The position numbers are program-made. Source: a plasmid. Taken from it: DNA of 64,000 nt. This document shows positions 39,001 to 42,000 of the stretch, piece by piece (positions within the stretch are counted from its first letter, which is position 1; the number at the start of each line of letters is the position of its first letter). Location: NCBI RefSeq assembly GCF_988243305.1, contig NZ_OZ547137.1; one strand, written 5' to 3'.

Positions 39001-42000
39001 TTGCTGTCAGCCTGTGCCATACCGGTAACCAGAGCCAGTATCAGAGGTAAAATACGTTTCATTTTCCGGAATCTCCTTTCCCTGCCAGTAAATCATGAGC
39101 CACCTGCCGGCAGTTACCCGTGGCGGCCACTTTCTCCAGCGCCTGGCCGACCCGCAGATTTCCCCGGATGATGTCGTATCCCTGACAGCAGAACACCACC
39201 AGTGCCGGTACGCTGCGAATGCCGTACTGTGAAAACAGCGTCGGGTCGATCTGAACACCATCAGTTGCGCCGTCTTTCACCAGGGACAACACGGCGTCAG
39301 CCGTGGCCTTCAGGTCGTTGTTCACCATGCCCCGCAGCGTGGCCGGAATACCGTAATGCCGGGTTTCGCCCAGCATCCGTTTCAGCCCCTCTTCGGGAAT
39401 GGAGAAGGACACAAAGTACACGGCGCCCTGCTGTGGTTTATCCTTCTGAGCAGCCTGCTGTTTACGGACCAGTTCATCGAGAAACTGGTTATCGGAATGC
39501 TGAAGGGGATTCGCCCTGACCTGCTGCTCTGCCCATGCCTGCAACTGTATGTCCGGCTTTTCACGTAACTGCTGACTCAGTGTTTCCTGCTGCTTCAGGA
39601 ACTGGCGGTTTTCAGTTGTGTTCACATTTTCTGAAGCATGAACAGCAAGATGCATCCCTGCTGTCAGAGCAAAAAGTGCAAATATTTTCCGGTTCATGAT
39701 ATTTCTCACTTTCTGCTATTTACAGGCATGAACTCATCAGAAAAAAGATAATTGAGAAAAACAGCCATAAACACACATGTAAATGTCACCTTCAGATATA
39801 ATCTGACAAGTGTCACTTGTTCTGATATATCTGCCTTCTTCCATTCATGAATAATTTCAGCGAGAAAACTGTCAGGTGCAAAATAAAATAATATAACGGG
39901 CACCATTACAAGACCAAAAGGAAATAAATTTAATGTTCTGCTTATCAGCCTGAGCAGCACAGCACCTATTTTCCTGAGGTGCTGAATATATTTACTGTCC
40001 ATTGTTGCCATTTTCATTTCCTCTTATTCATTAAAATGATTTACAGGAATACACAGTTACGTTTACGCCACATCAGGTAGCCGAAGTTTTTCTTTGTGTT
40101 GGGCGGATTTTTTCCCGTCTCCCAGCGCATCACACTGCGCCCGAACGGATGGCACTGTCCGCTGTCCGGATACATATTCACCATCTGATAACGCCAGCGT
40201 TCTTTGGGCAGGATTGGGGACGGATATTCATTACAGACGGCGTTATTTTTCCCGATGGTTTCCATAATCATGCCCTGACGGTGCAGCTTGAATGCCATGC
40301 GTTCACTGACCAGCAGGGAGGACTGCAACGGACTGGACTCATTACTCACCCAGCCATTGAACGGGTACATACTGCCCTGCGAACCGGCACACCAGAACAG
40401 AACATCGAGAGGCATATTAAAGGCACTGGCAATGGCATCTGCTGCGCAGGCCCCCTGTGCTATCGGATTGGCAAAAATGACGGCTTCCGGGTTGAGAATG
40501 GTGGTAAGGCTGCTGTCCGTCCAGGTGGGGTCGATTTCAGAAAGATAAGCGATATCCAGGTCACCACCTTCCAGACAGCCCAGCGATGTGATGATGTTCA
40601 GCCAGTACGTCAGCGGGTATTTGTACCAGTGAACGTGATAGAACGCCCCGTTCACCTGCTTCTCATCCTTTTTCGCCGTTCCCTGTGCCGTTTTACCAAA
40701 AGCCGGCAGGCTGAAGCCCAGGTTCACCATGCATCCCGGTGACCGGGTGACGTCCGTCAGCGCCATCGGCTCCCAGTAACCAATGGCCAGCCCGATACGC
40801 CTGAACAGCGGCGGCGGTGCCGGACAAATCTGAATAGGCATCGACGGGTTCGCCGTGTCGGGGACCTTACCCTGACTGACTTTGATACTGCCCAGCGAGA
40901 GCGGGAAAATACAGCTCCAGCAGATATCCGTGATCGGGTTTACAAAACGCCCCTCACAGGCAGAATCCGCAGACGCTGCAGGGACATGACCGGCGAGAAG
41001 GAATAACATCAGCAGCCACAGTCTTCGCTTCATTTTCTGCCCTCCTCTGCCGGAATAAATTCCACCTTCAGGAAGCGATCGCCGGGAACGGCGCTCACCC
41101 GTGCCGGGACCTGATCAATGCCGAGGCGCTGGCAGAGCACACCGTTCTGGTCAAAGTAAACACGGCTGTCCAGAGACTTCTGCATCTCCGGGATACTGCC
41201 CTGCACGAGGATAATTTTGCTCTCCAGTGTGGGCGGCGTCTGGCGTTTCATCCAGGCCACCTGCGCCGGATCATCGCCATTGATGAAATACAGCGTCTGG
41301 TTAAAAGGAACATACTGCAGCGGATTCATCACTTCACCCTGACGGGCAAACACCCGCCCTTCGTTATCCCGGATATCCGCAGCCAGTCTGACGGACGGGT
41401 CAAACAACCGGCTGCCGTATTTCTCTGTGCGTCCGATACCGGGCACGGCAGGGGGCCGCAGACTGTTACGGATCACCCGCTCCTTAAAGGCATCCATTTT
41501 CCGGCCCATCTCACCGGACTGCTCCAGTGCCGTCAGGCGCTGCATGATCACCGTCAGCATGTCCGGCTCCTTTACCGGCCACAGATCGCCCCAGGTGCCA
41601 AGATCGGCGGCGGCCACACTCTGCCCCCATATCAGCAGGGCAATCAGCCCCCGGCATCTCATGGTTCCGCCCTCATTCGCCGGGCAATATCCTGCTGGAT
41701 TTCCCGGGTGATATCCGGTGCCCCCTGTACCACGGCAGGCGACACCAGAATGACCGCGTGGTGTTTCTGCTGCCATGCCTGCAGGCTGGCTTCCAGTGCC
41801 GTGTTAAAACGCGCTGAAAGGGCTTTTGACTGTGCTTCTGACAGTTGTTTCTGACTGGCGCTGTCAAAAAACGCATCCACGGTCTGTTTCATGTTGAAGG
41901 CGGCAGTCACCGGTGCGTTCAGTCTGACAATGCCATAACTGATGGCTGCGTTCAGTAACACCATTGCCAGGCATCCCGGCACGGTCCACCACCAGTGGCT

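Follow-up and report, generated by a model that had tools for sequence, protein, structure and literature searches.

A small predicted membrane-protein gene between traU and trbC in R100-type F-like transfer operons

Between the transfer genes traU and trbC, the plasmid examined here carries a small ORF. Judged from its sequence, this is a real coding gene, accessory to the transfer operons of R100-type F-like plasmids. The ORF was analysed in a 64,000-nucleotide stretch of plasmid DNA (contig NZ_OZ547137.1), which we call the window. The ORF is taken to be coding because dN/dS between deep alleles is 0.19-0.52 (at dS of 0.5-2.5) and because its Shine-Dalgarno sequence is conserved. The reading that we consider probable is that of a real accessory gene embedded in the operon, whose product is the orphan anchor subunit of a two-part module and is dispensable for transfer. 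By comparison with database entries, it is an ordinary, already annotated hypothetical gene and not a discovery: the identical protein is WP_000224413.1, and every copy is labelled "hypothetical protein".

The small ORF, traU and trbC are all read in the same direction. Upstream lies traU (40041..41033, minus strand; Pfam TraU, E=7e-110) and downstream trbC (39059..39697, minus strand; Pfam TrbC_Ftype, E=5e-19). The 343-bp segment from the traU stop to the trbC ATG (39698..40040) is AT-rich, as a preliminary description of this DNA had stated, with 34% GC overall and local values of 0.33-0.37 vs about 0.53-0.61 in both flanks. The small ORF almost fills it, being separated from traU by 29 nt and from trbC by 8 nt. 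Up to its stop codon traU closely matches that of F, and this codon marks the left edge of a variable slot. The signal-peptide codons of trbC are unlike those of F, and the right edge of the variable region therefore lies inside the 5' end of trbC.

Taken from its first ATG, the ORF has 103 codons and occupies exactly 39706..40017 on the minus strand, so the hydrophobic 103-aa ORF of the preliminary description is confirmed at the same coordinates. That length holds for the first ATG, but the likely product has 101 aa. RefSeq/PGAP places the start at the second ATG, at 40011, which gives a CDS of 101 aa plus a TGA stop (39706..40011, minus strand) and the protein WP_000224413.1. The Shine-Dalgarno sequence AAGAGGA (40019..40025, minus strand) is 7 nt from the ATG at 40011 and just 1 nt from the first ATG; the former is thus better placed and is probably the start, and the ATG at 40017 is probably not a real one. 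The two additional codons of the longest ORF, ATG AAA (40012..40017, minus strand), were included in the start given earlier. A GAGG/AGGAG-type site is found 5-9 nt 5' of the start in 7/7 F-type alleles compared. When the 343-bp insert was shuffled 5000 times, the mean length of the longest ATG ORF was 35 +/- 14 aa, and a length of 103 aa was reached once. These shuffles argue against a frame that is open by chance in AT-rich non-coding sequence, as do the family dN/dS well below 1, the conserved Shine-Dalgarno sequence and a confident structure model. The ORF has no database family and no name, as would be expected of such a frame, but we regard this explanation as very improbable.

The junction with trbC bears on how the gene may be expressed. 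The TGA stop (39706-39708) shares bases with a GTG at 39709, and the overlap of the stop with the trbC start, proposed earlier as a sign of co-translation, holds for this unannotated GTG. It does not hold for the annotated trbC ATG at 39697, which is kept across homologues and lies 8 nt downstream of the small-ORF stop, a spacing equal to that between traU and trbC in F. With the stop this close to the trbC ATG, the ribosome-binding region of trbC falls in the last codons of the ORF. Within the small ORF no promoter-like or terminator-like sites were found, and a Rfam search of the region gave no matches; an RNA or regulatory element in place of a gene was rejected on these results. The placement in the operon thus stands in a modified form: the ORF is inside the tra operon and has its own Shine-Dalgarno sequence, and it ends in the ribosome-binding region of trbC and does not overlap its annotated start. 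The gene would be transcribed in the long tra operon mRNA and then translated.

F itself has traU, an 8-nt gap and trbC, with no ORF between them, which is the arrangement that the preliminary description had given. This direct junction is found in F and 1,436 other PLSDB plasmids; conjugation therefore does not need the small ORF, which is not a core transfer gene. The ORF is an extra gene with respect to F, as had been claimed, but it is not new: the protein is annotated in R100 and more than 1000 plasmids, known as a hypothetical protein and bearing no tra or trb name. But for the missing name, this nearly amounts to the known gene of the lineage that, by the preliminary description, would have refuted its claim. 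The full-text papers searched neither name the ORF nor describe a mutant of it or its expression.

Carriers include R100, about 1,160 PLSDB plasmids and 815 of 5,426 complete E. coli genomes (about 15%). The R100 copy encodes a 101-aa hypothetical protein (WP_000224416.1) and is the same gene with the same position and flanks, the two alleles differing by 6 conservative residue changes. Copies in pUTI89, pRS218 and the E. coli 042 plasmid (WP_000224413.1, WP_000224418.1; "Conjugative transfer protein" in UniRef) are identical or near-identical to that of R100. Across the R100-type copies, identity to the window ORF is 94-100% for protein and 98-100% for DNA.

More distant relatives define a small unnamed family that is confined to conjugative plasmids. 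A profile search gave 43 clusters at 50% identity, the window protein scoring E=4.6e-44 against the family profile HMM, and tblastn matched 2,014 plasmids (E down to 3e-61). Members are about 95-137 aa long and have a P-x10-W-x3-D...L-x2-L-Y-L-K loop between two hydrophobic helices. The window protein conforms to this plan and is similar over its whole length to representatives from R100 (WP_000224416), IncFII (WP_000412447) and pSLT (Q93GM9). Besides the window, R100, L020 and L024 have a member between traU and trbC. In pSLT-like, Klebsiella IncFII, S. Poona, E. albertii and pED208-like plasmids this slot contains diverged alleles (27-59% identity), and homologues in this identity range retain the length, both hydrophobic helices and the loop motif. 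The T4SS clusters of IncX-type plasmids have members as well, downstream of virB11/virD4.

Searches for kinship outside the family were negative. Neither the window protein nor diverged members had a significant match in Pfam, NCBIfam, PADLOC or PHROGs. PADLOC had no match for four family members and weak ones, above E=7e-4, for neighboring ORFs; among PHROGs holins there was no match for the window protein, the best for any member being E=0.031. A phage origin was rejected, as a tblastn search of 50,697 phage records was negative. The family profile matched none of the six-frame ORFs of the F tra region below E=3 (hmmsearch), and no homology to F TrbD, TrbE, TrbA, TrbF, TrbJ, TraQ, ArtA, TraS or TraL was detected with hmmsearch, NCBIfam and Pfam. 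Neither in F nor elsewhere in the window did the profile detect a paralogue.

The product is predicted to be an inner-membrane helical hairpin. Hydropathy analysis shows two Kyte-Doolittle segments above 1.6, and the AlphaFold2 model (pLDDT 85) has helices at residues 6-44, 47-59 and 62-90. Hydropathy, the model and family alignments together place a predicted transmembrane helix 1 at residues 26-45 (39877..39936, minus strand), with Pro31 and Phe32 invariant, and the core of a predicted transmembrane helix 2 at residues 75-91 (39739..39789, minus strand). Between them, family alignment and charge define a conserved acidic loop with a short helix at residues 46-74 (39790..39876, minus strand). 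Its motif is P-D/E-x10-W-x3-D-x2-E-K/Q-x2-L-V-R/K-L-Y-L-K, in which P46, W57, D61, L68, L71 and Y72 are invariant in the family. Summed over the family, the net charge is -17 in the loop, vs +40 at the N-terminus and +24 at the C-terminus, both termini being enriched in Lys/Arg. From this charge bias alone, the acidic loop is predicted to face the periplasm. The 101-aa product would then have cytoplasmic N- and C-termini and a conserved acidic helix in the periplasm. A sequence-profile search of the PDB and a Foldseek search with the AlphaFold2 model returned no match.

Genes of this kind are familiar in F-like transfer operons. The products of F trbE, trbA, trbF, trbJ, trbD and traP are small inner-membrane proteins that are dispensable for F-type transfer. 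Like the ORF, these are short, hydrophobic, AT-rich genes between essential pilus-assembly genes; unlike it, they have no sequence kinship with the ORF family, of which F has no copy. An accessory class is favored by this AT-richness, which the other small trb-type genes of the window share, by the position beside traP in pED208-like plasmids and by the occurrence in IncX-type T4SS clusters. TraS, of F-like entry exclusion, is likewise a small AT-rich inner-membrane protein whose alleles are far more diverged than the tra backbone, but it is not homologous to the family and has a different position, and the window carries its own traS/traT.

The suggestion of a two-part module comes from a second protein. 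In several plasmids it is translationally coupled to the family member or fused with it in frame. A homologous ORF of 146-173 aa follows the member in L005, L007 and L012; in E. albertii the two ORFs overlap at a ATGAGTAA junction, and an in-frame 259-aa fusion of member and partner is present on the 24 contigs examined, which are indexed in 96 blocks of the collection. The partner has no signal peptide and is predicted to be cytoplasmic; with regard to topology, it comes after helix 2 in the fusion. No match to the partner profile was found in the 64-kb window, and the partner is also absent from R100, pSLT and the IncX-type members, the last being followed by a thermonuclease gene in its place. 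A fragment of the partner remains in S. Poona. Pfam, PADLOC, PHROGs and PDB searches with the partner gave no match, and its AlphaFold2 model is poor (pLDDT 53). The basis for an anchor-for-partner role is synteny and one fusion lineage. Two observations run against such a role, namely that the partner has no detectable homologues of known function and that IncX-type members are without a partner.

The ORF might also be viewed as a TraP fragment or paralogue, on the strength of a 70% DNA match in an Escherichia marmotae plasmid (blastn H69) that reaches over the 3' end of a gene annotated as TraP. Residues 22-44 of the window protein are similar to the tail of the E. marmotae protein, FISETVMLFPLGVVTIFVILLYF. 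This reading is refuted, and we give it next to no probability. BLASTP against F TraP yields E=50, the window protein has no match to Pfam TraP (PF07296), and the Pfam TraP match of the E. marmotae protein stops at residue 141. The window has a separate full-length traP at 46004-46591. Related pED208-like contigs have an intact 190-aa traP and, after it, a 114-aa family member as a gene of its own, which shows the E. marmotae gene to be a deletion fusion of two such neighbors with a frameshift.

The variability of the slot suggests another explanation, possible though less than likely, in which the ORF, with its partner where present, is horizontally acquired cargo of a tra-operon hotspot. Such cargo would be unrelated to pilus biogenesis and would ride on tra transcription; its function might be competitive or protective, directed for instance at male-specific phages, at rival plasmids or at other attacks on the membrane. 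Between plasmids, the traU-trbC slot holds from 0 to 4 different ORFs, and HNH endonuclease ORFs are found in the adjoining trbC-traN slot. The composition of the family looks foreign (32-44% GC vs about 55%), its alleles differ at dS of 1-2.5 vs 0.06-0.12 for traU of the same plasmids, and members are found in two unrelated T4SS types. In L024 a duplicated 3' fragment of traU adjoins the family member, which suggests cassette exchange. SXT/R391 integrative conjugative elements carry variable cargo between conserved tra genes, and the traU-trbC slot resembles their hotspots in being a fixed inter-gene junction with different accessory ORFs in each element. SXT/R391 are, however, another element family, and the traU-trbC slot yielded no recognisable genes for defence, toxin-antitoxin systems or restriction. 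Against the cargo explanation, neither member nor partner has a PADLOC, PHROGs, Pfam or NCBIfam match, the other small, non-essential trb-type genes of the window's tra operon are equally AT-rich, and the traP of the pED208-like slot is a bona fide transfer accessory gene. Both entry and surface exclusion, moreover, are already served by traS/traT in IncF and by the EexN lipoprotein in IncX5.

A broader proposal is that the family is the membrane subunit of an undescribed two-component module, in which a two-helix inner-membrane hairpin pairs with a cytoplasmic partner of about 150 aa, and which occupies recombination hotspots in F-type and IncX-type T4SS operons. The deep divergence of its alleles would come from diversifying selection by an antagonist, for example male-specific phages or plasmids in competition with the carrier, and would not reflect housekeeping in pilus assembly. 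We put this forward tentatively, as an unlikely case.

Variation within the R100 clade points to how the gene may be faring in the window lineage. Among six R100-type alleles, 7/8 polymorphic sites are nonsynonymous, vs 3/28 polymorphic codons in traU of the same six plasmids; on this comparison, constraint in the window appears relaxed. An N:S ratio of 7:1 is no departure from the neutral expectation (238 N sites, 65 S sites), and selection on the window allele is therefore not demonstrated. At the divergence of the R100 clade, about 2.6%, an open frame is weak evidence.

These data also bear on whether the ORF is a decaying remnant in the R100 lineage, an orphaned, non-functional subunit whose frame would have stayed open only for lack of time to decay and because the trbC ribosome-binding site lies at the 3' end. 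The excess of replacements would fit decay, as would the lack of a partner in the window and R100 and the survival of a partner fragment alone in S. Poona. The pSLT-type allele is short of most of helix 2, and rare variants have in-frame deletions or IS truncations. On the other side, about 1,157 of about 1,162 PLSDB copies (at least 90% identity) translate full length, the strong Shine-Dalgarno sequence is kept, and all seven replacements are conservative (G/S, K/N, I/M, H/Y, K/N, A/V, M/V). Partnerless single-gene arrangements, furthermore, also occur in IncX-type plasmids and pSLT. Taken together, we judge decay to be distinctly improbable.

The accessory gene with an orphan anchor subunit remains the reading that we prefer. 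As a rule, family members would anchor a two-part accessory module at the mating apparatus or form its membrane subunit. In the window, the protein would be an orphan subunit under relaxed constraint and dispensable for DNA transfer, and the main remaining effect of the gene may be to pass ribosomes on to trbC.

Among the ORFs without a name on the IncF resistance and virulence plasmids of clinical isolates, this is one of the commonest; it is now more fully described, and is placed in a definable, plasmid-specific family of two-helix membrane proteins in a recombination-prone slot of the tra operon. Should the family modulate mating, susceptibility to phages or competition between plasmids, F-like conjugation would gain a further accessory layer, and the family could help to explain differences in transfer phenotype between F-type and R100-type plasmids.

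Between traU (40041-41033, minus strand; Pfam TraU, E=7e-110) and trbC (39059-39697, minus strand; Pfam TrbC_Ftype, E=5e-19) the window carries a small ORF on the minus strand at 39706..40017, where the preliminary description had placed it. The proposed length of 103 aa holds for the longest frame, which opens at the first ATG. Translation most plausibly begins at the second ATG, at 40011 (minus strand), to give 101 aa: the Shine-Dalgarno sequence AAGAGGA (40019-40025, minus strand) lies 7 nt before it vs 1 nt from the first ATG. RefSeq (WP_000224413.1) has the same start. The TGA stop (39706-39708, minus strand), thought to overlap the start of trbC, does overlap a GTG at 39709, but the annotated trbC ATG at 39697 is kept in all TrbC homologues compared and yields a canonical signal peptide; the two genes are therefore 8 nt apart. 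The ribosome-binding region of trbC falls within the final codons of the small ORF. The segment is AT-rich, as had been noticed, with a GC content of 0.33-0.37 over the small ORF vs about 0.53-0.61 on both flanks.

In plasmid F trbC had been described as directly following traU, and this is so: 8 nt separate the two genes, with no ORF between. F and the window are closely similar as far as the traU stop codon (1 mismatch in the last 58 nt) and diverge from there until past the TrbC signal peptide. The signal peptides, MKLSMKSLAALLMMLNGAVMA in F (12379-12441 of the F locus) vs MNRKIFALFALTAGMHLAVHA in the window (39635-39697, the trbC 5' end) and in R100, are unrelated while mature TrbC is nearly identical, which points to a breakpoint of recombination or deletion within the 5' end of trbC. 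The F signal peptide resembles the pSLT type, and polymorphisms further into trbC cluster in blocks, a mosaic pattern. R100 has the small ORF in the same position, with 101 aa and 94% identity, and a 2.1-kb region of the E. coli plasmid pNORD58_1 is 100% identical to that of the window. Both junction states are common, since a DNA copy at ≥95% identity occurs in about 1,160 PLSDB plasmids and the direct F-type junction in 1,436; the small ORF represents the 'R100-type' state, and the gene is dispensable. It is present in 815 of 5,426 complete E. coli genomes, nearly always plasmid-borne. As a sequence it is already known, being annotated in >1000 records including R100. It is labelled 'hypothetical protein' in pNORD58_1 and in all other RefSeq records among the matches listed; the sole other public label is the generic UniRef 'Conjugative transfer protein'. 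The literature open to full-text reading yielded no paper giving it a name or an experimental test.

From several lines of evidence we conclude that the small ORF is a genuine protein-coding gene within the tra operon, with expression predicted. Relatives were found by tblastn in 2,014 plasmids, about 850 of them at <60% identity, and in every case examined (a pSLT-like S. Typhimurium plasmid, Klebsiella IncFIA/IncFII, S. Poona, E. albertii, pED208-like contigs and others) the relative lies between traU and trbC. These relatives keep a length of about 100-114 aa and two hydrophobic helices; P31, F32, P46, W57, D61, L68, L71 and Y72, which include the connecting motif, are invariant across five deep alleles. 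In all F-type alleles a GAGG/AGGAG-type Shine-Dalgarno sequence stands 5-9 nt ahead of the start codon. Deep alleles compared with one another show a dN/dS of 0.19-0.52 (dS 0.5-2.5), the signature of purifying selection, though of a much weaker kind than that on traU (dN/dS 0.00-0.06). An AlphaFold2 model from a 16-sequence family alignment is confident (pLDDT 85), with helices at 6-44, 47-59 and 62-90. The small ORF has no Rfam match and contains no promoter-like or terminator-like site. That the frame is open by chance is very unlikely: when the 343-bp traU-trbC stretch was shuffled, the longest ATG ORF had a mean length of 35 +/- 14 codons, and 103 was reached in 1 of 5000 shuffles.

Constraint on the allele in the window itself is either relaxed or diversifying. 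Among six R100-type alleles the small ORF has 8 polymorphic sites, 7 of them nonsynonymous and all 7 conservative, and this 7:1 ratio is no different from the neutral expectation (238 nonsynonymous to 65 synonymous sites). In the same plasmids traU has 29 polymorphic sites in 28 codons, 3 codons being nonsynonymous. Such a pattern could be read as that of a decaying remnant. The frame is intact in nearly all copies at about 2.6% divergence, a weak sign of selection, and we consider decay quite improbable.

Judged by profile comparison, the small ORF belongs to no described family. Scans of Pfam, NCBIfam, PADLOC and PHROGs gave nothing significant, the PDB holds no sequence or fold relative, and just 43 clusters match the family profile among 1.84 billion representative proteins searched. 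The profile finds no paralogue within the window and matches nothing in the F tra region, so the small ORF has no relationship to TrbD/E/A/F/J, TraQ, ArtA, TraS or the other small Tra/Trb proteins of F. Derivation from TraP was suggested by an E. marmotae 'TraP' with 70% DNA identity to the small ORF, and is refuted. That protein fits the TraP profile only to residue 141, and continues into small-ORF-like sequence and then a frameshift. In related contigs traP is intact (190 aa) and the family member, of 114 aa, is a gene of its own behind it, so the E. marmotae gene arose by a deletion that fused two neighbours. A canonical traP is present elsewhere in the window (46004-46591). In this chimera (5944-6632 of the locus from pRHBSTW-00605_2) TraP residues 1 to about 140 are joined to family codon ~20, and the CDS looks like a mis-annotated pseudogene pair. 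A 1-nt frameshift splits the remainder into a second, 106-aa ORF, and the frameshifted form recurs as a cluster representative (P0078).

The slot between traU and trbC is variable: empty in F, it holds one ORF in the window, R100 and pSLT and two to four elsewhere, traP being among them in the pED208-like lineage. The small-ORF alleles are much older than the plasmid backbones, with dS of 1-2.5 vs 0.06-0.12 for traU in the F/R100-type plasmids compared. In one contig (slot at 1915-3799 of L024) the 3' end of traU is duplicated (66 aa) immediately before the family member and behind two inserted ORFs (180 aa and 148 aa). Cassette exchange by recombination anchored in traU would be expected to leave such a duplicate, which looks like its footprint. 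In E. albertii the slot includes a 154-aa ORF (2011-2475 of L007) with weak P-loop/AAA-like matches (Pfam AAA_14, E=7e-4; PADLOC mad8, E=8e-4), both below any curated threshold. A second variable slot lies one gene downstream, at trbC-traN, with an HNH-endonuclease ORF in the pSLT-like (L004 3436-3855) and Klebsiella IncFII plasmids (L005 4043-4414 and 4440-4862), the latter also with a 123-aa hypothetical ORF; trbC overlaps traN directly in the window, F and R100. It is possible, if doubtful, that the small ORF is cargo of such a hotspot with a competition or protection function.

AT-rich islands (GC 0.32-0.43) dot the tra operon of the window at small accessory or specificity genes (28200-28800, 29400-30300, 34500-34800, 35700-36300, 36900-37200, 45600-46200 and 50100-51900), including the traS/traG 3' end, trbF/trbJ, the trbA region, trbE, the trbD/traP 3' end and traM/traJ/traY. 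The small ORF has the composition usual for small accessory genes of the tra operon, and it forms one more such island. The AT-rich slot appears to attract IS elements: IS1 lies beside the small ORF in CP099088.1 (L018 383-1080) and in NZ_CP023816.1. In CP099088 the IS1 end is 20 nt upstream of the small ORF, traC through traU are missing and traR abuts IS1. Rare protein variants (P0012, P0048) read out of the small ORF into unrelated sequence, and may be IS insertions.

A homologous partner ORF of 146-173 aa, without a signal peptide, comes after the family member in Klebsiella IncFII, E. albertii and pED208-like plasmids; in E. albertii the two overlap as ATGAGTAA. In another lineage an in-frame member-partner fusion of 259 aa occurs on the 24 contigs read (96 collection blocks indexed), behind a second, free-standing 103-aa paralogue; in L020 these tandem paralogues lie between traU and trbC at 2590-2901 (free) and 3001-3780 (fused to a 150-170-aa partner). 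The fusion argues that member and partner act together and that the C-terminus of the member is cytoplasmic. Net charge over the family (N-terminus +40, loop -17, C-terminus +24) agrees with this topology. No function could be assigned to the partner from Pfam, PADLOC, PHROGs, the PDB or a model. S. Poona retains just a partner fragment, and a search of the window with the partner profile gave no hit.

Family members also occur outside F-type systems. In the IncX5 plasmid pKPC_CAV1947-56 and one related contig, a diverged member comes after virB11-virD4-Cag12/TrbM-like genes and is itself followed closely by a thermonuclease (SNase) gene, with a 2 nt gap (L015 8869-9677) or an overlap (L022 5001-5809); the upstream order in both is virB11, virD4, an ORF of the Cag12 family or without annotation, and a TrbM-like ORF. 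R100 encodes a thermonuclease-family protein far off, near finO (L008 26670-27131). Another diverged member follows a YadA-like adhesin gene, beside a VirB11 fragment. The pSLT-like allele of the Salmonella virulence plasmid (L004 2468-2776) runs 16 nt past the start of trbC. Compared with the other alleles it has lost most of the second hydrophobic helix through short deletions, and it could be degenerate.

The small ORF is thus probably an accessory, non-essential R100-type tra gene. It would be translated from its own Shine-Dalgarno sequence on the tra polycistron and end in the trbC ribosome-binding region. Its product would be an inner-membrane helical hairpin, N-in and C-in, with an acidic periplasmic helix. 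In related plasmids the member would be the membrane subunit, perhaps the anchor, of a two-part module, and in the window an orphan subunit. A reading in which the small ORF supplies the membrane component of a two-component module not yet described, associated with conjugation and under diversifying selection, seems unlikely. What is new here is descriptive: the definition of the family, its hotspot behaviour, the partner and the fusion, and its occurrence in IncX-type plasmids.
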